DNA of 64,000 bases from the sequence record NC_055781.1; one strand, 5' to 3'. The stretch is from Escherichia phage p000v. The notes beneath the pieces are model-generated. The model worked only from the letters and a program-made list of their open reading frames with translations, searched no databases and was not told the origin of the DNA. Position 1 is the first letter of the stretch. Every line of letters starts with the position of its first letter. A program made the translations under genes and the position numbers. Below, piece by piece: positions 3,838-62,946 of the stretch.

Positions 3838-5571
3838 TTACCCAATATCAATACGAGATCCGTCAACAGTGTATTGTCCTGAAGCTACTGAGCTCATTGT
3901 AGACATCGTTTCTGCCCAATCCCCGGCAACAGTCATATCAACATTACCATTAACAGTCCATTTAACGTTTCCGTTGACGGTGTAATCATGATTCCCTTCG
4001 ACCTGAGTTTTAGCATCACCTTTAACAAGAATATCTGCATTTCCGTCAACAACTATTTTGATATTACCCTTAACGTAAAGAGTTCCATCGCCTTCAACAG
4101 TTTTAGTTTGGTTACCACGAATAAAGATTGTGTCATTGCCGTCTATTTGATGGAGGCGATCTGCCATGTTATAATATATTTCATTAGCACCAACGTTAAC
4201 AAGCTTATCACCAGAAATCAAGAAGTTCCCATCGCCATTAGTGATGTCAAAAAGGTCTTCTACAGTTTTACGAGTACGACGCCCGGATGGAGAAACTTCC
4301 TCATATGACCCTGTTGGATGAACTAAGCGATAACGTTCATTACCTGGAGTGTCATCAAATTCTTGGATATGACCACTTTCTGTTTCCATAGCATGAACAT
4401 ATGGATACTCACCACGATAACTTGATTCCGGTTCTTTAAAAAGGATGCGTGAATCTAATGGAACAGGAGGACCGGCCGGGTCTTCTGAATCGGTATTTCT
4501 AGTAACTAAATCGGCACCAACTCCTGGTGAAGGTGGTGTTTTAACAGGAACACCGTACGATTCCATGTTACCAGTTAAAATAATTGTTGTTACGCGTGAA
4601 GCACGTCCTTTAGTCTGTTGGAACCATAATGAATCACGCCCGGATTTGTATGCAGTTTTCCAATCACCTGTGGCCATTGCTTTAAGCATAGTATTGAATT
4701 TTGCTACGCCACCAACGCCCATTTGGAAGCACATGTTTTCTAATGCCATTTGACGAGACCTGTTCATTTTAGCATAAACAGGACCTACTTTGGAATTAGA
4801 ACGAATGTCTTTCTGCATCTTAGCAAGGTCTTTCTCAAATAACGCTGTTGCTTCTTCTAATGTAATAGTTCCCGGATTTCCTGTTACTTCACGCCCTACT
4901 TGATCGGATAACAATTTATTAATTCGAGACATATCTCGGGTCTTTTCCATTACGATAAGGTGTCCAATACCTACTGTAGGATATCCGAGATGGTCCCAAT
5001 ACACTTTATCACGAAGTCCTTCGTCACGACGTAACATTTCCGTTATTGTAAAATTAGGGTCATCATCTTCTGGAATATTTGCTAAATCTGTATCGTCTGG
5101 GTTTATACCATAATCCAAGTTGTTATCTTGAATTACGTTAGAGTTTGAATAATAACCGGCTTCACCACCTTGGTTTAATACGTTAGTATCATTACCTAAA
5201 CGTCGTGGATATTGGCCTGTCGGGTCTGAAAAACCTTCAAGTCTATTAGGCTTTTCACGTACGATTCCGCCGTATGTACCAAGTACAATCCCGTTTGTTT
5301 TCCATTTGTCTAAGAAATGACCATATACTCGAGTTCCTTCAACAGGACCTGTAACAGAACCACCAATACCTGACATTGATGCGGACGTAATAGGTTGAAT
5401 AACAGTCATCCATGGAAGTTTTTCTGTAGGAATACCTTGCACATCACCTTGTGCTCTCTGTGCTGGATGAAGACCAACGACTCGAACTCGAACTCGCCCT
5501 TGTTTTAATGGGTCCATTCTGTCCTCGACAACACCCACGAACCAATTAAGGCTACTGCTAATCATTTCCAT
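3838..5571 (-). CDS. 5: baseplate hub / cell-puncturing protein gp5 with lysozyme domain
   Basis: 577 aa; T4-lysozyme-like segment (GIGHL...WFQQTKGRASRVTTIILTG) and C-terminal beta-helix repeats (VxGNxxxTV). Confidence 0.93.
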   Translation of the reverse strand: MEMISSSLNWFVGVVEDRMDPLKQGRVRVRVVGLHPAQRAQGDVQGIPTEKLPWMTVIQPITSASMSGIGGSVTGPVEGTRVYGHFLDKWKTNGIVLGTYGGIVREKPNRLEGFSDPTGQYPRRLGNDTNVLNQGGEAGYYSNSNVIQDNNLDYGINPDDTDLANIPEDDDPNFTITEMLRRDEGLRDKVYWDHLGYPTVGIGHLIVMEKTRDMSRINKLLSDQVGREVTGNPGTITLEEATALFEKDLAKMQKDIRSNSKVGPVYAKMNRSRQMALENMCFQMGVGGVAKFNTMLKAMATGDWKTAYKSGRDSLWFQQTKGRASRVTTIILTGNMESYGVPVKTPPSPGVGADLVTRNTDSEDPAGPPVPLDSRILFKEPESSYRGEYPYVHAMETESGHIQEFDDTPGNERYRLVHPTGSYEEVSPSGRRTRKTVEDLFDITNGDGNFLISGDKLVNVGANEIYYNMADRLHQIDGNDTIFIRGNQTKTVEGDGTLYVKGNIKIVVDGNADILVKGDAKTQVEGNHDYTVNGNVKWTVNGNVDMTVAGDWAETMSTMSSVASGQYTVDGSRIDIG

Positions 5572-6658: not shown

Positions 6659-7309
6659 ATGTATACTGTATATAAAATAACTAACATCGTAAATAATAAA
6701 ATTTATATAGGTGTTCATAAAACTAATAACCCGGATGATTCTTATAAAGGAACAGGTAAAATTATCTTAAAAGCCCATGCTAAATACGGATTAGATAATT
6801 TTGTAAAAGAAGTATTATATGTGTATGATACCGGTGACGAATTACTAAATGAAGAAATGGCTTTCCAAAAGGAAGCAGAATTAGTTGATCAATCTTTTGT
6901 GGATAGAGAAGATACATATAATATAGACCTAGGAGGAAAGGGAGGACGAGGCCGTTCTATTGATGTGCGAAAAAGAATAGGCGATTCATCCAGAGGTAGA
7001 AAATTAGGTCCTATTTCCGAAGAATCTAAAAAGAAAATGAGTTTAGCTAAGAAGGGTAAGAAATTATCCGAAGAGCATAAAGCTAAAATAGGTAAAGCAG
7101 GCCGAGGCAGGATAATGCCTAAAGAGATTAGAGACAAAATAAAAAATACTCTTACGGGACGAAATAGAACTCCTGAAGAAAAGGAAAACATGAGATTAGG
7201 ATACTTAAATACTCCTAATAAGATATGCCAATACTGCGGTATAGAATGTAAACCTGCGCCTTATAAACGTTGGCATGGTGATAATTGTAAAATGAGGAAA
7301 GTTGAATGA
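6659..7309 (+). CDS. GIY-YIG homing endonuclease (Seg-like)
   Basis: N-terminal [23 protein letters not shown] motif; basic C-terminal DNA-binding region; inserted between genes 4 and 2 with ATGA overlap onto gene 2. Confidence 0.85.
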
Positions 7310-8127
7310 GCATATTCCAAATTATATCTGAAGGCGTACAAGCCCCTAAGATTGCTCAGTCTATTAACGAAAGAAAATGGATTAAGGTGGGATTAGAGTA
7401 CAAGAAAGCTAAAGAGAAAGGAATCACTGCAAAAGCATTTGCAGAATCAAAAGGAATAAAATACTCGACGTTTAAGTCTGCAATGTCTAAATATGCATCG
7501 GCTATTAAAACTGAACAGAAAATTGAAACACTTGAATCTAAACCTAAAAATAAACTCAATAAGCAAGAACGTCAACTTCTGATGATAAACTCGTTTCGCA
7601 GTTCAATACGAGAAAAGATTAGAAATGAAGGCGCAGCAGTAAACAACAAATCATCTAAGTGGTTTGTTGAAACAATTAAGAAAAGTGTAAAAGGTCATAA
7701 AGTAGTCAAGCCTACGCCAGGCAAAATTTATACTTACGTGTATGATGCTAAACATAAAGATACTCTGCCATACTGGGACAGATATCCTTTGATTATTTAT
7801 TTAGGATTAGGTAAACATAATTTGTTGTATGGGTTAAACTTGCACTATATCCCACCTAAAGCACGACAACAGTTTCTTGAAGAATTGCTGAAGCAATATG
7901 CTAGCACAACTACTATTACTAATAACACAAAGTTGAAGATAGACTGGAGCAAGGTGAAAGGATTTCAAGGTGCTGACAAAATGATTAAAGCATACCTGCC
8001 AGGCCACATTAGAGGAACAATAACAGAAATCGCTCCTAAAGACTGGGCTAACATAATCATGTTACCTACTCAGCAGTTTATGTCAAAAGGAAAACGTTTC
8101 TCTGCGAATACTGTTTGGAAATCTTAA
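7306..8127 (+). CDS. 2: DNA end protector protein gp2
   Basis: 273 aa; size and position (between 4 and 3) as in T4; basic protein. Confidence 0.75.
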
Positions 8128-8229
8128 TTCTATTCTCTTCCGTTCTTCTGATATTCTGTTGAACCAGATTAATGGAAGAGACCTAAAACCATTATACTGC
8201 ATTTTTATTAAAGCGTTTTTGAGGTGCTT

Positions 8230-8814
8230 ATGACTCGTCCAACGAGACAGATTTTTAACCAAACAAATATAACAAACTTTGTTGTGGATATCCCGGATAG
8301 TACACGAACTTCAGGTTTTGTGCTCAATGCCCAAACGGCACCATTGCCAGGTGTGAGAATTCCTGTTGTTGAAACTGTGACAGGCACAATGGGGTTAGGA
8401 CGTGCAATGCGTGCAGGCACCACATTTGAATACGACCCTTTTGTTGTACGATTTATAGTTGATGAAGACATGACGTCCTGGATGAACATGTATAAATGGA
8501 TGCTCAGCACTAATAACTATATAACCGGACATAATACAGCCCACTCCGATGGTCCTGAGTTTGTTACTTTGCACATTTTAAATAACAATAAGACAGAAGT
8601 AGTTTTGACGGCAAATTTCTATAAACCATGGATTTCTGATTTGAGTGAAATTGAATTTAGTTACACTGAAGACTCTGACCCTGCCGTTACGTGCGTAGCA
8701 ACTATTCACTATGCGTATATGACGATAGAAAAGGATGGTGAAGTCATTGTATCTCAACAACCGCGTCAAGCGGTCGAATCTAAATCCATTTCTAGACACC
8801 CTTCCTTGCGTTAA
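8230..8814 (+). CDS. 3: tail completion and sheath stabilizer protein gp3
   Basis: ATG 8230 with GAGG SD; position between genes 2 and 1 as in T4. Confidence 0.7.
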   Translation: MTRPTRQIFNQTNITNFVVDIPDSTRTSGFVLNAQTAPLPGVRIPVVETVTGTMGLGRAMRAGTTFEYDPFVVRFIVDEDMTSWMNMYKWMLSTNNYITGHNTAHSDGPEFVTLHILNNNKTEVVLTANFYKPWISDLSEIEFSYTEDSDPAVTCVATIHYAYMTIEKDGEVIVSQQPRQAVESKSISRHPSLR

Positions 8815-8867
8815 TCGCTTCTAGCTCCGTATGTTATAATCACTTATAAATTATATGAGGAAAACCT

Positions 8868-9602
8868 ATGGAGCTAATCTTTTTAAGTGGCATCAAACGT
8901 AGTGGTAAAGACACTACTGCTGATTACATCAATTCAAACTTTAAATCCGTAAAATACCAATTAGCATATCCAATTAAAGACGCTCTAGCAATAGCCTGGG
9001 GACGTAGGCATGCTGAAAATCCTGATGTATTCACAGAGTTGAAATACGAATACTTTGAAGGCATTGGATACGACCGTGAAACACCATTAAATCTCAATAA
9101 GTTGGATGTTATTGAATTATTGGAAGAAGCGCTAATTTATTTGCAAAGTCAATATTTACCAATTAATAATGTTAAAGTATTATCATCGTTAGAAGGTGGA
9201 TATTCATATCTAGATATTAAACCATATGAAGCCCTGCGTGAAGCTATAAATAATATCAACGACACATGGTCAATCCGCCGTCTTATGCAAGCCCTCGGTA
9301 CGGATGTTGTCGTTAATTTATTTGACCGTATGTATTGGGTTAAGCTTTTTGCATTAAACTATATGGATTATATTGGAAGTGATTTCGATTACTATGTCGT
9401 AACCGATACACGCCAAGTCCATGAAATGGAAACCGCTAGAGCGATGGGTGCCACAGTTATTCATGTGGTTCGCTCTGGTACGGAATCCACCGATAAACAT
9501 ATTACAGAAGCTGGGTTGCCTATTGAAGAAGGTGATTTAGTTATTACAAACGACGGCTCTTTAGAAGAGCTTTATTCTAAAATTGAAACAATCTTAAGGT
9601 AA
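8868..9602 (+). CDS. 1: deoxynucleoside monophosphate kinase gp1
   Basis: 244 aa; MELIFLSGIKRSGKDTTADY P-loop and extended similarity to T4 gp1. Confidence 0.93.
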   Translation: MELIFLSGIKRSGKDTTADYINSNFKSVKYQLAYPIKDALAIAWGRRHAENPDVFTELKYEYFEGIGYDRETPLNLNKLDVIELLEEALIYLQSQYLPINNVKVLSSLEGGYSYLDIKPYEALREAINNINDTWSIRRLMQALGTDVVVNLFDRMYWVKLFALNYMDYIGSDFDYYVVTDTRQVHEMETARAMGATVIHVVRSGTESTDKHITEAGLPIEEGDLVITNDGSLEELYSKIETILR

Positions 9603-9606
9603 TAAA

Positions 9607-10292
<686 letters not shown>

Positions 10293-53643: not shown

Positions 53644-56355
53644 ATGAAAGAATTTTACTTAACGGTTGAACAGATTGGTGATTCAATTTTTGAACGTTAC
53701 ATCGATTCTAATGGCCGTGAACGTACTCGTGAAGTAGAATATAAACCATCACTGTTTGCTCATTGTCCGGAAAGTCAGGCTACGAAATATTTTGATATCT
53801 ACGGTAAGCCGTGTACTCGTAAACTATTCGCTAACATGCGTGATGCGTCTCAATGGATTAAACGCATGGAAGATATCGGACTTGAAGCACTTGGCATGGA
53901 CGATTTCAAATTAGCGTATTTGTCTGACACTTATAACTATGAAATCAAATACGACCATACAAAAATTCGTGTGGCTAACTTCGACATCGAAGTAACATCT
54001 CCGGATGGGTTCCCTGAGCCGTCACAAGCAAAACATCCTATTGATGCTATCACCCATTATGACTCAATTGACGACAGGTTCTACGTATTTGATCTATTGA
54101 ATTCTCCATATGGTAATGTAGAAGAATGGTCTATTGAAATCGCTGCTAAGCTTCAAGAACAAGGTGGTGATGAAGTTCCATCTGAAATTATCGATAAAAT
54201 CATTTATATGCCGTTCGATAACGAAAAAGAATTGTTGATGGAATATCTCAACTTCTGGCAACAGAAAACTCCTGTCATTTTGACTGGATGGAACGTTGAG
54301 TCATTTGATATTCCATATGTGTATAACAGAATCAAGAATATTTTTGGCGAATCTACTGCGAAACGTTTATCACCACATCGTAAAACTCGTGTTAAAGTTA
54401 TCGAAAACATGTATGGTTCTCGTGAAATCATTACATTGTTCGGTATCTCTGTTCTTGATTACATTGACCTTTACAAAAAATTCTCTTTTACCAATCAACC
54501 GTCGTATTCTCTGGATTACATTTCAGAATTTGAATTGAACGTTGGTAAACTGAAATATGACGGCCCTATTTCTAAGCTTCGTGAAAGCAATCACCAACGA
54601 TATATTTCTTATAACATCATCGACGTGTATCGTGTATTGCAAATTGATGCTAAGCGCCAGTTCATCAACTTGAGTTTGGACATGGGTTATTATGCTAAGA
54701 TACAGATTCAATCTGTGTTCAGCCCAATTAAAACATGGGATGCTATTATTTTTAATAGCCTTAAAGAGCAGAACAAGGTGATTCCACAAGGTCGTTCTCA
54801 CCCGGTTCAACCTTATCCTGGCGCTTTTGTTAAGGAACCTATTCCAAATCGATACAAATATGTAATGAGTTTCGACCTTACATCTCTGTATCCAAGTATT
54901 ATTCGCCAAGTGAATATTAGCCCAGAAACAATAGCAGGAACGTTTAAAGTAGCTCCATTGCATGATTATATTAACGCAATCGCTGAACGTCCTTCAGATG
55001 TGTACAGCTGCTCTCCTAATGGCATGATGTATTATAAAGACCGTGATGGTGTAGTTCCAACTGAAATCACTAAGGTCTTTAATCAACGTAAAGAACATAA
55101 AGGTTACATGCTTGCAGCTCAACGTAATGGTGAAATAATTAAAGAGGCATTGCATAATCCTAATCTTTCTGTTGACGAACCATTAGATGTTGATTATCGT
55201 TTCGACTTCACTGATGAGATTAAAGAAAAGATTAAAAAGTTGTCTGCTAAATCTCTTAATGAAATGTTGTTCAGAGCTCAACGTACTGAAGTTGCAGGTA
55301 TGACTGCACAAATTAACCGTAAATTGCTTATCAACTCACTTTATGGTGCACTTGGAAACGTTTGGTTCCGTTATTACGATTTGCGTAATGCAACTGCAAT
55401 CACAACATTTGGTCAAATGGCTTTACAGTGGATTGAACGTAAAGTTAATGAATATCTGAATGAAGTTTGTGGTACAGAAGGTGAAGCTTTCGTTCTTTAT
55501 GGTGATACAGACTCTATTTACGTATCTGCAGATAAAATTATTGATAAGGTTGGTGAATCTAAATTCCGTGATACCAACCATTGGGTGGACTTTTTAGATA
55601 AGTTTGCACGTGAACGTATGGAACCGGCTATTGATAGAGGTTTCCGTGAAATGTGTGAATACATGAACAATAAACAACACTTAATGTTCATGGACCGAGA
55701 AGCTATCGCTGGTCCTCCGCTCGGTTCTAAAGGTATTGGTGGATTCTGGACTGGTAAGAAACGTTATGCATTAAACGTGTGGGATATGGAAGGTACTCGT
55801 TACGCTGAGCCTAAACTCAAAATCATGGGTCTAGAGACTCAGAAATCTTCGACCCCTAAAGCAGTACAGAAAGCTCTTAAAGAATGTATTCGTCGTATGC
55901 TTCAAGAAGGTGAAGAATCATTACAAGAATATTTTAAAGAGTTTGAAAAAGAATTCCGTCAATTGAATTATATTAGCATCGCGTCGGTATCTTCTGCGAA
56001 TAACATTGCTAAATATGACGTTGGTGGATTCCCTGGTCCTAAATGCCCGTTCCATATTCGTGGAATTCTGACATATAACAGAGCTATCAAAGGTAATATT
56101 GATGCTCCACAAGTTGTAGAAGGCGAAAAGGTATACGTTCTGCCTTTACGTGATGGAAACCCGTTCGGTGATAAATGTATCGCATGGCCTTCTGGTACTG
56201 AAATCACAGATTTAATTAAAGACGACGTACTTCATTGGATGGACTACACTGTTCTCCTTGAGAAGACATTTATTAAACCACTTGAAGGATTCACATCAGC
56301 AGCGAAACTCGATTACGAGAAGAAAGCATCTCTGTTCGATATGTTCGATTTTTGA
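53644..56355 (+). CDS. 43: DNA polymerase gp43
   Basis: 903 aa; B-family motifs (DIEV exo, SLYPS, KKRYA, YGDTDS); length as recalled for RB69-type polymerase. Confidence 0.97.
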   Translation: MKEFYLTVEQIGDSIFERYIDSNGRERTREVEYKPSLFAHCPESQATKYFDIYGKPCTRKLFANMRDASQWIKRMEDIGLEALGMDDFKLAYLSDTYNYEIKYDHTKIRVANFDIEVTSPDGFPEPSQAKHPIDAITHYDSIDDRFYVFDLLNSPYGNVEEWSIEIAAKLQEQGGDEVPSEIIDKIIYMPFDNEKELLMEYLNFWQQKTPVILTGWNVESFDIPYVYNRIKNIFGESTAKRLSPHRKTRVKVIENMYGSREIITLFGISVLDYIDLYKKFSFTNQPSYSLDYISEFELNVGKLKYDGPISKLRESNHQRYISYNIIDVYRVLQIDAKRQFINLSLDMGYYAKIQIQSVFSPIKTWDAIIFNSLKEQNKVIPQGRSHPVQPYPGAFVKEPIPNRYKYVMSFDLTSLYPSIIRQVNISPETIAGTFKVAPLHDYINAIAERPSDVYSCSPNGMMYYKDRDGVVPTEITKVFNQRKEHKGYMLAAQRNGEIIKEALHNPNLSVDEPLDVDYRFDFTDEIKEKIKKLSAKSLNEMLFRAQRTEVAGMTAQINRKLLINSLYGALGNVWFRYYDLRNATAITTFGQMALQWIERKVNEYLNEVCGTEGEAFVLYGDTDSIYVSADKIIDKVGESKFRDTNHWVDFLDKFARERMEPAIDRGFREMCEYMNNKQHLMFMDREAIAGPPLGSKGIGGFWTGKKRYALNVWDMEGTRYAEPKLKIMGLETQKSSTPKAVQKALKECIRRMLQEGEESLQEYFKEFEKEFRQLNYISIASVSSANNIAKYDVGGFPGPKCPFHIRGILTYNRAIKGNIDAPQVVEGEKVYVLPLRDGNPFGDKCIAWPSGTEITDLIKDDVLHWMDYTVLLEKTFIKPLEGFTSAAKLDYEKKASLFDMFDF

Positions 56356-56395: not shown

Positions 56396-57031
56396 ATGAA
56401 AACTACACCAATCACTATCGCTATTGACGCAATCGTAAAACAAGCTTCATCTCTTGCCACTATGGCTAAAGTAATTAGTCAAAACTCTGCCCGATATAAT
56501 GCTATTCTTGAAACTCTTCGTCGCCCTGGACTGAGTAATTATGAAAGCCGAGTAATTATTACAGGTGTTGGTAAGAACGCTAATATCGCAACTAAAGCTT
56601 CCGAGACTTTTGCTTCACTAGGTATTCCTAGCATGTATTTGAACACCGGGCATTATTCTCATGGCGACGCAGGATTTATTGCACCTAATGATGTATTAGT
56701 TCACATCAGTCGTTCTGGTAAGACTGAAGAAATGATAGGTGTTGCTAAACATCTTCGTATGATTCGTCCTCAGGTTAAACAGATTCTGTTACATTGTAAC
56801 CCTGACATTCCGCAAGAATACGAAGCTCTTTTTGATTATACGTTCTGTACAGGCATCGCGGTAGAGGTTGATGAGAATTCTCTGGCTCCGACCATGTCCA
56901 CTACATTGTTGTTAGCGCTTATCGATACGTTTGCTATCAACCTTTCGTCTGAACGTGGATTTACCTCTAATGACTTCCTTAAGTTCCACCCTGGTGGTGC
57001 ACTAGGTGCCATGTTACGAGGCGAACAATGA
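56396..57031 (+). CDS. SIS-domain sugar-phosphate isomerase (KdsD/GutQ-like, no CBS domains)
   Basis: VIITGVGKNANIATKASETFASLGIPS, HGDAGF, ISRSGKTEE, HPGGALGAM motifs parallel arabinose-5-phosphate isomerase SIS domain. Confidence 0.8.
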   Translation: MKTTPITIAIDAIVKQASSLATMAKVISQNSARYNAILETLRRPGLSNYESRVIITGVGKNANIATKASETFASLGIPSMYLNTGHYSHGDAGFIAPNDVLVHISRSGKTEEMIGVAKHLRMIRPQVKQILLHCNPDIPQEYEALFDYTFCTGIAVEVDENSLAPTMSTTLLLALIDTFAINLSSERGFTSNDFLKFHPGGALGAMLRGEQ

Positions 57032-57171
57032 AAGCAATAACAATAGGACTTTTACTATTGATGCTTGTCATGACTATCTACTGGAGCTTAACGGCTCCAG
57101 TAATGATTCCGACTCTTATAATCGGATGGATTATGATTGGACTACAAGCAAAGTATGAATGCTTTAACTAG
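57028..57171 (+). CDS. small membrane peptide (47 aa)
   Basis: Not in track; ATGA-coupled to SIS gene; two hydrophobic segments; position recalls T4 imm. Confidence 0.4.
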   Translation: MKAITIGLLLLMLVMTIYWSLTAPVMIPTLIIGWIMIGLQAKYECFN

Positions 57172-57212
57172 AATAGTGTACAATACACCTACTTACCAAT
57201 GAGGACTTCAAC

Positions 57213-58898
57213 ATGAAAAAAGCTGTTATTCTTGGTGCTGGACTGGCAACTCGTTTGTATCCAATAACGCACCATATTCCTAAGGTGCTTGTTAACTATA
57301 AACAAGACACTATTCTGAGCAATTTGTATACAATTTATTCTGACCTTGGCGCAGATGAAATTATTGTAGTAGTTCATTCAAAATTTGCTGAAACTGTTCG
57401 AGCTTATTGCGAGCAAGAAGGGTTCAATGTGACTATTCGTACAGTTGATGAAGCGTATGGTTCTGCTTATGCTCTTGCTAAATTATACAAAGATTTAGAT
57501 GGCCATAACGTAATTGTTAACTGGTGTGATATTATTCCTGACTTTGGTTCATGGTCTTGGAATGTTAACGCAATCTATGTTAAGGGTGATGAATGTCGAT
57601 ATAATTTCGATGGTGAAAATATCACTAACGTAGGTTCAACAGGTGGTAATGTTGTAGGAATTTATCAGTTCAAAGACTGGGAATTCTACATGGGTTCTAC
57701 TGATGAGGAAATTCACGAATACTGCAAAGGTCGTGATTTCGTAGAATTCCTTTACGGCAGTGCATTCAATAAATCAGAGCTTATGAATCTAATTGATTTA
57801 GGTGATATGCCTAAACTTGAAAAGGCTCATGAAGTTCGTGAACTGAATCGTAGTTTTAATGCAGTTGAAATTGGCGAAGAAACTGTAACTAAATTCGCGT
57901 TAACCGAACAAGGTCGAGCTCTTCAAAAAGATGAGATTTCATGGTATTTGAAAGTGAAATCAGATTCAGTTCCTCAGTTAGTTTCGGTAAATGAAAATAA
58001 TTTTGAAATGGAACGTATTAAAGGTAAGCCGGCATTTGAATATATTAAATCCAAATCAAGTCTTGCTCGTCCACAAATTGTTGATGCAATTTTAGATGCA
58101 CTGAAATTCAGCACGGACACTTATTTTGTAAGTCCTGAAACTGTTCGCCGTGATTTCACTAAAGAGTTCTATACGAAAGTTATTGATCGTTGTGAAAGCA
58201 TTCAGCCATTGATTGATTCATTTGGTAAAATCACACGTGTGAACTACACTAAGATTGGACGTCTGAAGCCAATGTTGAAACAAGCTTTAGAACATCTTAT
58301 TCGTTATCATAACCGTTCTCAGGGACAGTACTCTGTTATTCATGGTGACCCGAACTTCAGTAATACTATGATTACCGATAACGGCGAAGTCAAGTTTATC
58401 GACCCTCGTGGATATTTTGGTGAAACCAAGATTTACGGGCCAAAATTGTATGATGAAGCTAAAGTGCTTTATGCTGTTTCAGGTTATGATGAATTCAATG
58501 CTAATCCGACCTGGGGTCAGTTTACTATTGATGAAACAACTTGTAATGTGACTATTAACATCAATCCATTAGTTTACAAATATGGAAAGATGAGTTCGTT
58601 TAACGAGTATCATCATTTGGCAGTAGCAATTATCTGGATTGCATTAGGTGGTTATTTCAAGAATAATCCACTTAAAGCGGTTGCCGCATATTATAAAGGT
58701 ATGGAACTTCTGACTAAGCAATTACGTAACATGGGCCGTGTACTTCAAGACGGCTCTATTAGTTATGACGTAGCAGAACCTGTAACGGCTACTCTGATTA
58801 CAAAAAATCCTGGTAAATGGGTACTAACTGATAAAGAAACTGGTGTTTCCTATCGTCCAATCGGCGGCGATATCACTCATCAATGGGAACGAATCTAA
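57213..58898 (+). CDS. bifunctional sugar-1-phosphate nucleotidyltransferase / APH-like sugar kinase
   Basis: N-terminal ILGAGLATRLYPIT (RmlA/GalU-type); C-terminal HGDPNFSNTMI...VKFIDPRG (aminoglycoside/choline-kinase fold); 561 aa. Confidence 0.8.
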   Translation: MKKAVILGAGLATRLYPITHHIPKVLVNYKQDTILSNLYTIYSDLGADEIIVVVHSKFAETVRAYCEQEGFNVTIRTVDEAYGSAYALAKLYKDLDGHNVIVNWCDIIPDFGSWSWNVNAIYVKGDECRYNFDGENITNVGSTGGNVVGIYQFKDWEFYMGSTDEEIHEYCKGRDFVEFLYGSAFNKSELMNLIDLGDMPKLEKAHEVRELNRSFNAVEIGEETVTKFALTEQGRALQKDEISWYLKVKSDSVPQLVSVNENNFEMERIKGKPAFEYIKSKSSLARPQIVDAILDALKFSTDTYFVSPETVRRDFTKEFYTKVIDRCESIQPLIDSFGKITRVNYTKIGRLKPMLKQALEHLIRYHNRSQGQYSVIHGDPNFSNTMITDNGEVKFIDPRGYFGETKIYGPKLYDEAKVLYAVSGYDEFNANPTWGQFTIDETTCNVTININPLVYKYGKMSSFNEYHHLAVAIIWIALGGYFKNNPLKAVAAYYKGMELLTKQLRNMGRVLQDGSISYDVAEPVTATLITKNPGKWVLTDKETGVSYRPIGGDITHQWERI

Positions 58899-59284
58899 TG
58901 CACCGTGTAGAAAACATGCTTAATCTTTGTTTTGATGTCGATGATTGTATAACAGAGTGGAATAACAATCGTGATTACGTGAACTTCAAACCAGACGTCG
59001 AAATGGTGTCTGCCATTAATGCCCTGTATGATGCAGGGCATACCATAACGCTTTACACTGCCCGTGGTATGAAGTCGGTAGGTCCTGGTCGTATAGCAAT
59101 TGACATTCTCCCAAGTCTGATTCAGAACTTGGAAAACATTGGTTTGAAGTACCATAATTTGCTAACACATAAACCAGTATATGATTGGATTATCGACGAC
59201 AAAGCTATGCGTCCTGACGAATTCAAAGCTCTTATGAATAAAGGCGAATTCGAAACATTTAAATCATATAAACCAAATCTATAA
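58898..59284 (+). CDS. HAD-superfamily phosphatase-like protein
   Basis: N-terminal FDVDDCIT (DxD motif I) and later K...DD; start taken at ATG overlapping upstream stop (TAATG). Confidence 0.55.
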   Translation: MHRVENMLNLCFDVDDCITEWNNNRDYVNFKPDVEMVSAINALYDAGHTITLYTARGMKSVGPGRIAIDILPSLIQNLENIGLKYHNLLTHKPVYDWIIDDKAMRPDEFKALMNKGEFETFKSYKPNL

Positions 59285-59341
59285 TAATTTAAGTAAGACC
59301 TGCAAAAACCATCGCATCAATTAACGCGAGATGCAAAAAAA

Positions 59342-60502
59342 ATGAATACTTTTAAAATCGGAACGAATTTTGATTTAGCTCTTCTTGATAAAATCGTAGA
59401 GCTCAATAAAACCTATCCTAATAGCTTGATAAACGAAGTATATGGCTCTACAAGAGAAATGGCTTTTGTAGCAGCCAGACCTGATTTTAGGCTTCCTGAC
59501 GTTGACAAAAAGATGTTAGAAGACTACGTTAAACGTTGTAACGAATTAGGTATTTGCTTTAACTATACACTCAACACGATAAATCCTGGTTCAAAAAGAG
59601 AACTAGTTGAGTGGAAGAAGAAAGCTATTCAGGATTATGTTCAGTATCTTTGGTCAATAGGCGTATGGCGTATTACTATCGCTAACCCTGTTGTTATGGA
59701 AATTGTTCGTGAAGTCAATAAAGATATTGAGATTGAAGTTTCAACAATTCTACATGTCGATGCGGTAACTCAAATCAAATACTTACATGACCAATATAAC
59801 ATCAAAAAGGTCTGTTGCGGAATTCATAAGAACCGTTCAGTTTCTTTCCTGAAGCGTGCAGCAGAGTTTTGCAATAAGAACAATATAATATTTGAAGTTC
59901 TTGTAAATGAGTTCTGTTCTAATGCTGGTAAAGGGTATACAACACATTGTAGTTATCGTGACTCTTGCTATATTTTCCATAGTACTGATGTTACCGCTGA
60001 TGATGCTAAATCCTTAAATGGATATCCTATGCAGCACTGTATTAAAGCTCGTGATACAGACCCATTTAACTGGTTGAGAACTCGTTTTGTTCGTCCTCAA
60101 GATTTGAAACTTTATAATGATATTGGTATCACTCAATTCAAAGTTTCAGGACGTACAGGTAGCACAGACTACATTTTGAAAGTTCTTGAAGCATACGCTT
60201 CTGAAAAGTTTGAAGGTAATTTGTTAGAACTGTGGAAGCCTTTAGAGACTATTTTCACTCTTGAAAATGAGACTGAGTTTTCACATACAGTAAATATTGA
60301 AACCTCTTTGTTAGATGGCTTTTTAGAAAAAAGGTGGTTCAGACATCCAGATTTTGATTGTGCTAATGAAATCTGTGGGTCAACGTGTACATATTGTGAA
60401 AGGTATTATAAACGTCAATTATCTAAAAACGGGTTAGCAGAAAACTCCATATCTATTATTGATATAACTAACTCTGATGACGCTTTGAGGTACCCGGAAT
60501 GA
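59342..60502 (+). CDS. Cys-rich protein, possible peptidase-U32-like Fe-S enzyme
   Basis: EVLVNEFCSNAGKGYTTHCSYRDSCYIF and C-terminal CANEICGSTCTYC clusters; resemblance to U32 signature is partial. Confidence 0.6.
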   Translation: MNTFKIGTNFDLALLDKIVELNKTYPNSLINEVYGSTREMAFVAARPDFRLPDVDKKMLEDYVKRCNELGICFNYTLNTINPGSKRELVEWKKKAIQDYVQYLWSIGVWRITIANPVVMEIVREVNKDIEIEVSTILHVDAVTQIKYLHDQYNIKKVCCGIHKNRSVSFLKRAAEFCNKNNIIFEVLVNEFCSNAGKGYTTHCSYRDSCYIFHSTDVTADDAKSLNGYPMQHCIKARDTDPFNWLRTRFVRPQDLKLYNDIGITQFKVSGRTGSTDYILKVLEAYASEKFEGNLLELWKPLETIFTLENETEFSHTVNIETSLLDGFLEKRWFRHPDFDCANEICGSTCTYCERYYKRQLSKNGLAENSISIIDITNSDDALRYPE

Positions 60503-60738
60503 TTTCTAGAAAAAGTTTTAATTATAAACTTAACGAAGAGATTTTGACTATGAAACTGAACACTAACGAACAAATTCTTAAAAAGGCCCTTATGGGCCTG
60601 TTTGAAACCAAAGCGGCTAAAGTGATTAAAGAACCTGTTCAATTGGAATACTACGCTGATGCATTTCTTCATAGTGTTCTTGGAAGTATCGATGCTGAAG
60701 CTTTACGTTATATCAACATTGTCAAGAAATTCAAATAA
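60499..60738 (+). CDS. hypothetical protein
   Basis: 79-aa ORF, ATGA-coupled. Confidence 0.5.
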   Translation: MISRKSFNYKLNEEILTMKLNTNEQILKKALMGLFETKAAKVIKEPVQLEYYADAFLHSVLGSIDAEALRYINIVKKFK

Positions 60739-60780
60739 GCTTTACGAATTGAGTATATAATAAATTGTATTGAGGTAAAC

Positions 60781-61497
60781 ATGGGAAAACATAACACAAT
60801 GAAATATATCAAAGCCGCAGATTTTCAAACCGCATTTAAAGCAGTCAATCGTGAAATTTTAGAAAACCCGGAATTCGTAACTGATTCTCGTATTGGACGT
60901 TGTAATGAAATTGGGTCTATGACAGTAGTTGTTGACACTCCATCATCATTCAAAATGACCGACCCACGTATTAACCGCATCTCTTATGAATATGCCGAAG
61001 ACTTCTGGAAGTTTATGATTTCTGGTGGTACCAACGCAGAAGAAGCGTTTAAGGCATATCCTAATGTCGCTAAATTTATTTCTAAACCAAAATCAGATGT
61101 TTTGCCGGCGAACTTCAACACTTTCTATGGTCCTCGCATTGCGGCCCAATTACCAACTCTTCTAAAAGAACTTAAAGAGAAGCCTAACTCCCGAAGAGTT
61201 GTGTTCCAAATTCTAGAAAGTTCTGATCAGGCTTTGCTTGATTCGGACGAAACACTTGAATATCCATGTACTGACTCAGTAACTTATTATATTCGTGATG
61301 GTAAGCTTTATACCCACTGTCATATGCGTTCTCAGAACTGTGCTGTTGTTATGCAGTTGGATTTTTATCTCCAAGGAAAATTACTTCATTATATCGCTAA
61401 CGAATGCGGTGTAGAAGTTGGTGATTATACTCATACCATGGTAAGTGCCCATGTGTTTGAACGTGATTTTGATTATGTTAAAGGATTCCTTGACTAA
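60781..61497 (+). CDS. 42: pyrimidine hydroxymethylase, dCMP hydroxymethylase gp42-like (thymidylate synthase fold)
   Basis: YPCTDSVTYYIRDGKL and HMRSQNCAVVMQLDFY align with T4 gp42 catalytic Cys region and Asp specificity residue as recalled. Confidence 0.75.
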   Translation: MGKHNTMKYIKAADFQTAFKAVNREILENPEFVTDSRIGRCNEIGSMTVVVDTPSSFKMTDPRINRISYEYAEDFWKFMISGGTNAEEAFKAYPNVAKFISKPKSDVLPANFNTFYGPRIAAQLPTLLKELKEKPNSRRVVFQILESSDQALLDSDETLEYPCTDSVTYYIRDGKLYTHCHMRSQNCAVVMQLDFYLQGKLLHYIANECGVEVGDYTHTMVSAHVFERDFDYVKGFLD

Positions 61498-62396
61498 TGG
61501 CTATTTTCCGCGTACCAATCTTGAGTATGCGGTCTTATGAAACTGGACAGTATGCTATCCTTAAGGATGGCAACTTCCAACTTCATTTGCACCGTGCTAA
61601 TCCGGGTGATGTGATTACATATCCACGTAATGCATCTGATATTAAAGAATGCGAACGTCTTTTCCCAGAATTTAAGTTTGTTCCATTATGGTATAAAGAT
61701 AACGCGTATAACACTCGTAAATATTTCTGGACTGAAAATGAATTTGTGGTTGATTCATTAATTGATTATTATGATTGTGATTTTCTAATCACAGATATCA
61801 CTGGTTATGGTGGCGCTTTTGATGTGGAATTCAATTTCAATATCACTGCAGACCCTAATAAACCACGTTTTTATATTGATGAATTCTTAAAAACCGACAT
61901 GTTGTCTGTTAATCGTTCACTTCAAACTACTGTGTTGAATGAACGTCAAAAAGAAGTGCTGGTTAACGCAGGTGCAGATGGTAATAAGATTATCGTAACG
62001 CAGAAAGTTATACGTCCTTCCATCATGCAGCGTCTTGTAGGTGATTTGGCTCCTATTCATCTAGATGGTATTTTTCATCCATTTCGAATTAGTGACCCAT
62101 GTTATCGTTTTGAACAAGTGGTTGAATGTGCAATTCAATTAGGTCAACCGCTTTATATAACCGATCCAAATAATAGCTTCGACAGAAATAAGTATCCTGA
62201 AGAAGCGCTGATTCGAATTTTTAAACCAACTAAAACTGAGTACTATCAAATTCTTAAAGGACGTCCGAAAATTCAATATTTCGAAAATCCTGAAGAAGTA
62301 TTCCATCCAGGTCTTGGTGAGTTCATCTACTTTAATGCTTTAATTTCTTCGCCGTATAATATACCTAAATACGAAGATGTCGTAATCGAGGAATAA
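61497..62396 (+). CDS. hypothetical protein in beta-glucosyltransferase position (candidate DNA glycosyltransferase)
   Basis: 299-aa ORF between gp42-like gene and uvsX; no motif recognised; function inferred from synteny only. Confidence 0.6.
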   Translation: MAIFRVPILSMRSYETGQYAILKDGNFQLHLHRANPGDVITYPRNASDIKECERLFPEFKFVPLWYKDNAYNTRKYFWTENEFVVDSLIDYYDCDFLITDITGYGGAFDVEFNFNITADPNKPRFYIDEFLKTDMLSVNRSLQTTVLNERQKEVLVNAGADGNKIIVTQKVIRPSIMQRLVGDLAPIHLDGIFHPFRISDPCYRFEQVVECAIQLGQPLYITDPNNSFDRNKYPEEALIRIFKPTKTEYYQILKGRPKIQYFENPEEVFHPGLGEFIYFNALISSPYNIPKYEDVVIEE

Positions 62397-62397
62397 A

Positions 62398-62946
62398 ATG
62401 GCTAAAATTATTTTAGTAGATGGCCCGGATAATGCCGGTAAAACAACTTTCATTAATGACATAATGGAAATTAGTGAAAGATATGTAAAGATTGATTTCC
62501 CTAAACGAACAGTTGATGGACGTTTCGATGTTAAGTCTCGAAATGAAGTTGGCTGTTTCGAAACGATGTTGAATTATTTAGACCCTACTAAGATTTATCT
62601 GTTAGACCGTGGATATATTAGTAACTGGGTTTATGGACGTATTCGACAAGATGCGGACTCGATTCTTGACGTTTATGAACAGGACTATGTTCGTCTTTGC
62701 CAAAACCATGATGTGTTCACAATTATTTTAACACGTAACGAAATGACTGAAAGTTTTGAAGACGACCTTATTACTTTGTCTTCATTCGGTTTTAATACAG
62801 TCATTTCACATTTTGAAGAGTTTGCAATTCATAACAAAATCCAAACATATCAATTACTTAATCATGATGGTGCTAACAAAGTTATAGGATTTAATGCAAG
62901 CGAACGTAATGGTTTGATTACAGAAATCATCAAATGGGCTCGTTAA
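62398..62946 (+). CDS. P-loop kinase-like protein
   Basis: Walker A GPDNAGKTT near N-terminus; 182 aa; dNK/thymidylate-kinase-like size. Confidence 0.65.
   Translation: MAKIILVDGPDNAGKTTFINDIMEISERYVKIDFPKRTVDGRFDVKSRNEVGCFETMLNYLDPTKIYLLDRGYISNWVYGRIRQDADSILDVYEQDYVRLCQNHDVFTIILTRNEMTESFEDDLITLSSFGFNTVISHFEEFAIHNKIQTYQLLNHDGANKVIGFNASERNGLITEIIKWAR

Follow-up and report, generated by a model that had tools for sequence, protein, structure and literature searches.

The DNA of phage RB69 contains mono- and di-arabinosylated 5-hydroxycytosine (5hoC) with the sugar attached via an ether oxygen, as found by mass spectrometry and NMR (Lee et al., 2026, PMC13326640), and 5-ara-dC and 5-ara-ara-dC were reported for the DNA of Mosigvirus NP (PMC13390438). 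Arabinose in RB69 DNA had been detected earlier by Thomas et al. (2018, PMC6024577), who flagged the gene module and proposed arabinosyl-5-hydroxymethylcytosine (ara-hmC) on the basis of high-performance anion-exchange chromatography and MALDI data. Here we examine the corresponding genes of Escherichia phage p000v, using a 64,000-nucleotide stretch of sequence record NC_055781.1 (the window), which is part of a Mosigvirus (RB69-like) genome. The genes form a cassette between gp43 and uvsX that very probably encodes an RB69/HY126-type system for replacing cytosine by 5-O-arabinosyl-5-hydroxycytosine. One member of the cassette, a U32-family Fe-S protein, is tentatively considered as a second enzyme for cytosine hydroxylation.

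In a megablast search, at least 150 records of RB69-like (Mosigvirus) phages had a 6.7-kb block that includes the cassette, with identities of 95-99%. Its order of isomerase, nucleotidyltransferase/kinase, phosphatase, U32 protein, thymidylate synthase (TS) homolog, glycosyltransferase (GT) and P-loop kinase is that of the RB69 gp45-gp55 genes and of the 'Afh' cassette of phage HY126, and the TS signature residues and the bifunctional kinase/nucleotidyltransferase are shared as well. The encoded proteins are 91-100% identical to those of RB69 and 97-99.5% identical to those of HY126, and the genes are under purifying selection, with ratios of nonsynonymous to synonymous polymorphism (pN/pS) of 0.016-0.26. 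There is essentially no difference between the three cassettes, except that an ORF of 79 aa is full length in p000v and frameshifted in HY126. Arabinosylation cassettes of this type were published between 2018 and 2026, so the finding is already known, and the value for p000v is a corrected annotation: 5hoC instead of hmC, a hydroxylase instead of a hydroxymethylase, and a kinase that acts before the phosphatase.

Predicted formation of the hydroxylated nucleotide

The TS homolog (238 aa) matches Pfam Thymidylat_synt with an E-value of 1.9e-15, is 98.7% identical to RB69 gp48, and is about 97% identical to the proteins in PDB entries 9IQC, 9IR2 and 9IQU (E 3e-160). It was aligned with gp48 of RB69, gp42 of T4 and ThyA of E. 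coli, and the ThyA numbering was checked. Residues E160, C163, N186 and D194 of the p000v protein correspond to L143E, C146, D169N and N177D in ThyA numbering. Whereas T4 gp42 retains the Asp at ThyA position 169 (MRSNDV), the p000v protein has an Asn (MRSQNC), and the two proteins are only 29% identical. The D169N substitution predicts 5-hydroxylase activity, and RB69 gp48 was found to bind flavin and to produce 5-hydroxy-dCMP (5hodCMP) with oxygen derived from 18O2 (PMC13326640). The Asn at this position and the near-identity to gp48 place the p000v homolog in the hydroxylase rather than the hydroxymethylase branch, and with the activity carried over from gp48 it is a predicted flavin- and O2-dependent 5-hydroxy-dCMP synthase. 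A preliminary description of this DNA, made from the sequence alone, had named it a gp42-like hydroxymethylase with the cytosine-specifying Asp; that Asp is indeed present (N177D), but the reaction should be 5-hydroxylation in view of D169N and the gp48 data.

In RB69, the gp1-type kinase gp159 phosphorylates 5hodCMP, and gp48 together with gp159 yields 5-hydroxydeoxycytidine (5hodC) in vivo (PMC13326640). The window encodes a gp1-type deoxynucleoside monophosphate (dNMP) kinase with a translation that begins MELIFLSGIKRSGKDTTADY, which is T4 gp1-like by inspection and lies where the RB69 gene order would place it. It is predicted to convert 5hodCMP to 5hodCDP, the activity known for gp159. 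Its gene is about 47 kb away from the cassette, in spite of the common pathway. The cassette itself encodes a kinase of the thymidylate-kinase fold, with Walker A motif GPDNAGKT, a match to PHROG 761 (thymidylate kinase, E 1e-44) and 98.4% identity to its RB69 counterpart, which may also phosphorylate the modified dNMP.

Predicted synthesis of UDP-arabinofuranose

The first enzyme of the sugar branch is a 211-aa isomerase that consists of a SIS domain only (Pfam SIS, E 9.6e-10; PHROG 5670, E 2e-116) and is without the tandem CBS domains of KpsF, GutQ and KdsD. Matches to NCBIfam TIGR00393 (KpsF/GutQ, E 8.5e-32) and KdsD (E 3.4e-30) are both below the full-length cut-offs. Homology suggests that it converts ribulose-5-phosphate to arabinose-5-phosphate. 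The protein is 96.2% identical to its RB69 ortholog and 97.2% to that of HY126. Synonymous divergence (pS) of the gene is 0.29-0.34 against these phages and 0.05-0.17 for the rest of the cassette, and the gene coincides with a local maximum of GC content (0.42 vs about 0.36). The raised pS and the GC peak suggest that the isomerase gene may have a recombination history separate from that of the other cassette genes.

The 561-aa enzyme starts with a GxGxRL-type nucleotidyltransferase signature (N terminus LGAGLATRLYPIT), and residues 3-99 match Pfam NTP_transferase above the cut-off (E 1.3e-9); PDB entry 1JYK was found with an E-value of 2e-5. Residues ~308-409 gave weak matches to the APH and fructosamine-kinase Pfam families, all below the curated cut-offs, and a kinase catalytic-loop motif of the HxDxxxxN type, HGDPNFSN, is present at residue 377. 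A match of the bifunctional enzyme to the APH-type kinase fold is reported in Table 1 of PMC13326640. With 543 of its 561 residues identical to HY126 AfhE and 99-100% identity to both RB69 fragments, the enzyme may be assigned the AfhE functions, i.e., the kinase domain would make arabinose-1,5-bisphosphate and the nucleotidyltransferase domain UDP-arabinofuranose. According to the work of He et al. (2026) as cited in PMC13326640, AfhE converts arabinose-5-phosphate to arabinose-1,5-bisphosphate, the HAD phosphatase AfhF removes the 5-phosphate to give arabinose-1-phosphate, and AfhE later forms UDP-arabinose from this product. The p000v phosphatase is 99.2% identical to AfhF. It has the DVD motif (FDVDDC at residue 13), matches PHROG 1238 (E 6e-43), and matches the capsule biosynthesis phosphatase family TIGR01689 with an E-value of 1.6e-13, below the full-length cut-off.

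These results agree with the earlier proposal that the cassette makes an NDP-pentose for DNA glycosylation, the product being UDP-arabinofuranose in view of the orthologs studied in HY126. The proposed order of dephosphorylation followed by C1 phosphorylation has to be reversed, as the AfhE kinase acts first and the AfhF phosphatase second in the account given in PMC13326640. Neither are the enzymes without characterized relatives, as had been thought: orthologs were studied biochemically, and the PDB entries close to the TS homolog were mentioned above.

Proposed arabinosyl transfer and predicted pathway

Sequence searches of the PDB with the 299-aa protein and with the U32 protein gave no matches, and structure prediction was therefore used for both. 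The 299-aa protein, which was correctly placed in the slot of beta-gt, has a compact GT-B fold with two Rossmann-like domains, is structurally similar to GT-B enzymes and is soluble. We propose that it is the first arabinosyltransferase acting on 5hoC. A homolog of RB69 gp3, the second arabinosyltransferase, and a gp56 dCTPase were sought in the 64-kb window and both were absent.

The following pathway can thus be drawn. The TS-fold enzyme would hydroxylate dCMP at C5 with flavin and O2, the gp1 dNMP kinase and probably also the cassette P-loop kinase would phosphorylate the resulting 5hodCMP, and gp43 would incorporate the 5-hydroxycytosine nucleotide into DNA. In the sugar branch, arabinose-5-phosphate made from ribulose-5-phosphate by the SIS isomerase would receive a 1-phosphate from the kinase domain of the 561-aa enzyme; the HAD phosphatase would then take off the 5-phosphate, and the nucleotidyltransferase domain would produce UDP-arabinofuranose. 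The GT-B enzyme would place the first arabinose on 5hoC, and a second transferase, the RB69 gp3 homolog, would be encoded outside the window. The isomerase, the first transferase and the role of the P-loop kinase are the steps that we infer. The system differs from hmC glucosylation in T4 in both branches: the base is hydroxylated with flavin and O2 instead of hydroxymethylated with folate by gp42, and phage enzymes provide the sugar, arabinofuranose, whereas T4 uses host UDP-glucose.

The preliminary description, in which the pentose is transferred to hmC made by a gp42-like dCMP hydroxymethylase, is essentially the proposal of Thomas et al. (2018). It could draw on the chromatography and MALDI data of that study, and the TS homolog indeed has N177D and an acidic residue at L143 like T4 gp42. 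We consider ara-hmC very unlikely, as the Asn at D169 and the low identity to gp42 point to another reaction, the 18O2 and flavin results with the gp48 ortholog refute it for RB69 (PMC13326640), and the assignment has explicitly been called erroneous (PMC13390438); the base in RB69-type phages is 5hoC (PMC13326640, PMC13390438). A role in capsule- or lipopolysaccharide-type sugar metabolism (Kdo or capsule mimicry, remodelling of the host surface) might be suggested by the best bacterial family matches, which are KdsD/GutQ and the capsule-biosynthesis phosphatase TIGR01689. This is hardly credible, since genes for KDO8P synthase, CMP-Kdo synthetase and export are missing from the cassette, which lies in the replication gene block together with genes for a soluble GT-B enzyme and a TS homolog that modifies dCMP, and which corresponds to an RB69 cassette for which arabinose on 5hoC was chemically found in the DNA (PMC13326640). 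Capsule or lipopolysaccharide mimicry was rejected on the basis of genomic context. In support of an arabinosyl-5hoC system, the reactions of the hydroxylase and the gp1 kinase, the steps of the AfhE and AfhF type, and the chemistry of the DNA were demonstrated experimentally for near-identical orthologs. Against it stand the carry-over of function from these orthologs to p000v and the finding that among the glycosyltransferases of phage DLP3 no single one was active on 5hoC DNA (PMC13326640).

Sequence and predicted structure of the U32 protein

The 386-aa protein matches Pfam Peptidase_U32 with an E-value of 7e-11 (42.2 bits vs a cut-off of 22.4); in NCBIfam only a sub-threshold match to UbiU was obtained. 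The AlphaFold2 model (pLDDT 92.7) shows a U32 TIM barrel, and the top Foldseek match in the PDB was the U32 protein 5D88. Beyond this entry, Foldseek returned only generic TIM barrels from the PDB and no solved structure of UbiU, TrhP or RlhA.

Ten cysteines are conserved in 121 homologs with identities down to 47%. Nine of them are invariant, i.e., C158, C192, C203, C209, C233 and a C-terminal cluster C340-x4-C345-x3-C349-x2-C352, while C177 is present in 118 of the 121 sequences. When a profile of the family was compared with the four U32 paralogs of E. coli, the best match was RlhA (hhalign 83%, 205 columns). C203 and C209 align with the RlhA Fe-S ligands C169 and C176, and the canonical third and fourth cysteines are unaligned. 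The spacing C192-x10-C203-x5-C209-x23-C233 differs from the canonical [4Fe-4S] motif CX6CX15CX3/4C.

The U32 gene has the lowest pN/pS in the cassette (0.016 vs HY126 and 0.032 vs RB69). Identity of the protein across genera is at least 82%, and that of the nucleotidyltransferase-kinase goes down to 42% in the same phages. The only label that we found for it in the literature is "sugar or heterocycle reductase" (PMC13326640, Table 1). A full-text literature search, which did not cover He et al. (2026) and Mahler et al. (2025), gave nothing that ties phage U32 proteins to prephenate or arabinosylation, or chorismate mutase to 5-hydroxycytosine; a hydroxylase role may already be in print.

Genomic associations of U32 genes

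In seven related phages, an AroQ chorismate mutase is encoded beside or near U32 (CM_2 scores of 33-47 bits vs a cut-off of 27, catalytic residues conserved). These are Serratia phage LC53, Enterobacter phage Entb_45, Edwardsiella phage PEi20, Pectobacterium phage PM2, Yersinia phage phiR1-RT, Proteus phage PM2 and Shewanella phage Thanatos-2; in Thanatos-2 the cluster is rearranged, with U32 and the chorismate mutase still adjacent. Both genes are missing from Acinetobacter phage AM101 and the E. coli Dhakavirus Bp7. A search with the U32 protein gave 220 phage records, all with at least 80% identity, and the names listed did not include an Acinetobacter phage; the TS homolog and the nucleotidyltransferase-kinase each gave 57 Acinetobacter phage records. 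A rule that U32 occurs only in phages of hosts capable of anaerobic growth is only half-supported by these data: no Acinetobacter phage was among the U32 records listed, but the Dhakaviruses of E. coli lack U32 too.

The slot of the chorismate mutase in related genera is occupied in p000v by the 79-aa ORF. Homologs of this ORF are confined to Mosigvirus and many are truncated to 47-58 aa; in HY126 the frameshift follows codon 40. It evolves fast (pN/pS 0.22), has no Pfam match and lacks the catalytic residues of the phage chorismate mutases. The possibility that it is a degenerate chorismate mutase was rejected, as there was no CM_2 match, hhalign against the phage enzymes gave 0.1%, and its distribution is restricted to Mosigvirus. 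The ORF is probably dispensable. The chorismate mutase was lost in the Mosigviruses, which presumably depend on host PheA and TyrA for prephenate.

U32 homologs with 45-58% identity are encoded on unrelated phage contigs. We surveyed 36 such loci, including a few near-duplicates, by profile searches of flanks of up to 10 kb. None of the 36 had a TS-family gene within these flanks, beyond which one could still lie. A homolog of the 299-aa GT was found near U32 in 20 loci, often within 60 nt, a nucleotidyltransferase-kinase homolog in 15, and a SIS isomerase homolog in 9. Chorismate mutase and/or DAHP synthase genes were next to or near U32 in 9 of the 36.

In distant phages, weak homologs of the cassette P-loop kinase precede the GT-U32 pairs. 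Five loci from non-T4 metagenomic phages (L013, L023, L024, L025 and L026) have, at about 5-9 kb in each locus, a recurrent module of a thymidylate-kinase-like P-loop protein, in some cases a radical-SAM/SPASM protein, then a GT homolog and finally U32, directly upstream of a gene for Pol III alpha and without a TS homolog or sugar-nucleotide genes. This module is likely an undescribed system for DNA base glycosylation.

Three other loci differ in composition. Locus L011 (3996-9804) has consecutive genes for a GT homolog, SIS isomerase, nucleotidyltransferase-kinase, U32 protein, DAHP synthase and epimerase, preceded by two UDG-family genes and an adenylate/thymidylate-kinase-like gene. Its DAHP synthase scores 237 bits in NCBIfam against 63 for KDO8P synthase. 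The locus thus combines an arabinose-type cassette with an enzyme of the shikimate pathway and has no TS-like hydroxylase. In L012 (4777-13179), the neighbors of U32 are a GT homolog and a TAGT (TET-associated) DNA glycosyltransferase, the latter overlapping the U32 gene. Genes for a dUTPase/DCD protein and a UDP-galactopyranose mutase are close by, and a galactofuranosylated hydroxypyrimidine is hinted at by this locus. In L007 (8001-14360), two divergent U32 paralogs are accompanied by dNK, an NT5C deoxyribonucleotidase, a radical-SAM/SPASM protein, a nucleoside transporter and a nucleoside deoxyribosyltransferase. Dockerin/GH43 proteins are encoded on this contig as well, and indicate an anaerobic Firmicute or its prophage as the probable source.

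Organization of the locus

The positions of the genes are given in Table 1. All ORFs listed in the preliminary description are present on the plus strand at the positions given there, and profile searches of each ORF bore out the SIS, nucleotidyltransferase, HAD, TS and P-loop assignments. Its statement on synteny is also correct, because T4 has imm.1, imm, 42, beta-gt and segA in the same interval between gp43 and uvsX. Two small ORFs, of 47 and 79 aa, had been left out.

Table 1. Genes of the probable arabinosylation cassette of phage p000v, flanking genes and the distant dNMP kinase gene (positions in the window).
Feature	Position	Strand	Size	Remarks
gp1-type dNMP kinase	8868-9602	+		RB69 gp159 ortholog; outside cassette
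gp43	53644-56355			upstream flank
SIS isomerase	56396-57031	+	211 aa	RB69 gp55 ortholog
Hydrophobic small ORF	57028-57171	+	47 aa	
Nucleotidyltransferase + APH-fold kinase	57213-58898	+	561 aa	RB69 gp52:53 / HY126 AfhE ortholog
HAD-type phosphatase	58898-59284	+	128 aa	RB69 gp51 / HY126 AfhF ortholog
U32-family Fe-S protein	59342-60502	+	386 aa	13 Cys; RB69 gp50 ortholog
79-aa ORF	60499-60738	+	79 aa	Mosigvirus-only
TS-fold 5-hydroxy-dCMP synthase (predicted)	60781-61497	+	238 aa	RB69 gp48 ortholog
GT-B glycosyltransferase	61497-62396	+	299 aa	RB69 gp46:47 ortholog
P-loop nucleotide kinase	62398-62946	+	182 aa	RB69 gp45 ortholog
uvsX	start ~63045			downstream flank; continues past window end

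The cassette genes are tightly packed, and abut or overlap with ATGA or TAATG junctions, which suggests that they may form one translationally coupled unit. For the phosphatase, an alternative upstream ATG at 58883 would give a protein of 133 aa. In the RB69 record NC_004928, the genes for the GT (gp46/47, 4598-5498) and the nucleotidyltransferase-kinase (gp52/53, 8095-9781) are each split in two. These splits are regarded as sequencing errors (PMC6024577, PMC13326640), and the intact 561-aa and 299-aa ORFs of p000v support the published view of frameshift errors in the RB69 reference.

The 47-aa ORF has the translation MKAITIGLLLLMLVMTIYWSLTAPVMIPTLIIGWIMIGLQAKYECFN, is strongly hydrophobic and overlaps the isomerase stop codon (ATGA). 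ORFs that match it in size and position are annotated in HY126, LC53 (as 'transmembrane segment'), Pectobacterium phage PM2 and PEi20. It would be a small membrane protein within a cytoplasmic nucleotide-sugar cassette. Homing endonucleases are inserted inside the cassettes of LC53, PEi20, phiR1-RT and Proteus phage PM2, and a 216-aa ORF elsewhere in the window (6659-7309, plus strand) looks like a GIY-YIG (Seg-type) homing endonuclease.

Possible function of the U32 protein

Described U32 proteins include RlhA, which forms 5-hydroxycytidine in 23S rRNA (ho5C2501), TrhP, which forms 5-hydroxyuridine in tRNA (ho5U34), and UbiU/UbiV, which carry out the O2-independent hydroxylation of ubiquinone precursors; all are prephenate-dependent, with prephenate as oxygen donor (PMC5727448, PMC6599085, PMC6747719, PMC10990095). 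The phage protein resembles this family in its above-threshold U32 domain, its TIM-barrel fold and the genomic coupling to prephenate supply. It also coexists with an O2-dependent enzyme for what would be the same reaction, as do TrhO/TrhP and UbiIHF/UbiUV in E. coli. It differs from the known U32 hydroxylases as a distinct subfamily: an additional CX4CX3CX2C cluster is present at the C terminus, DUF3656 and a partner subunit are both missing, and its substrate is presumed to be a deoxynucleotide or DNA instead of RNA or a quinone.

We propose, with a probability that we put somewhat below even, that the protein hydroxylates a cytosine (or pyrimidine) deoxynucleotide at C5 in a reaction that depends on prephenate and not on O2. 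The enzyme would use a [4Fe-4S] cluster and prephenate as hydroxyl donor. It would serve the T4-like phages as a backup for the O2-dependent TS-fold hydroxylase, giving two routes to 5hoC. In the minimal kinase-GT-U32 modules, which lack both a TS-like hydroxylase and sugar-nucleotide genes, something must create the acceptor hydroxyl, and U32 would be its only source.

Several observations weigh against such a hydroxylase and leave a different function an appreciable possibility: the protein might reduce a sugar or heterocycle, act on the arabinose moiety, or modify host or phage RNA in the manner of RlhA and TrhP. Of the four canonical Fe-S cysteines of U32 proteins, no more than two align with those of RlhA. 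Cassettes without U32 exist in Acinetobacter phages and in an E. coli Dhakavirus, and the U32-less Acinetobacter phage DLP3 makes ara-5hoC (PMC13326640), so that U32 is not required aerobically. A role in sugar metabolism is possible because U32 adjoins the nucleotidyltransferase-kinase in distant loci that make sugars. On the other hand, all U32 proteins whose physiological role is known are linked to the prephenate-dependent hydroxylation of a ring, either aromatic or pyrimidine (PMC10990095, PMC5727448, PMC6599085), several unrelated gene arrangements pair U32 with chorismate mutase or DAHP synthase, and the minimal modules have neither sugar-nucleotide genes nor a TS-like hydroxylase. A genuine collagenase-like peptidase, as implied by the Pfam family name and by the many records annotated as 'peptidase' or 'collagenase-like protease', is most improbable: the protein combines a TIM-barrel fold with ten conserved cysteines of the kind typical for Fe-S enzymes, its genomic context is nucleotide metabolism, and neither a signal peptide nor a protease motif is known for the family.

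If the U32 protein is indeed a cytosine hydroxylase, it would extend the substrates of the U32 hydroxylase family beyond RNA and quinones to a first DNA precursor. Since the only demonstrated hydroxylase requires O2, it would also explain how O-glycosylated cytosine can be made by enteric phages in the anoxic gut. The kinase-GT-U32 modules would then represent a widespread and previously unrecognized DNA hypermodification pathway, and those next to Pol III alpha would flag many metagenomic phages as carriers of unknown glycosylated bases, which would be relevant to the evasion of restriction and CRISPR systems, to phage therapy and to sequencing artefacts.

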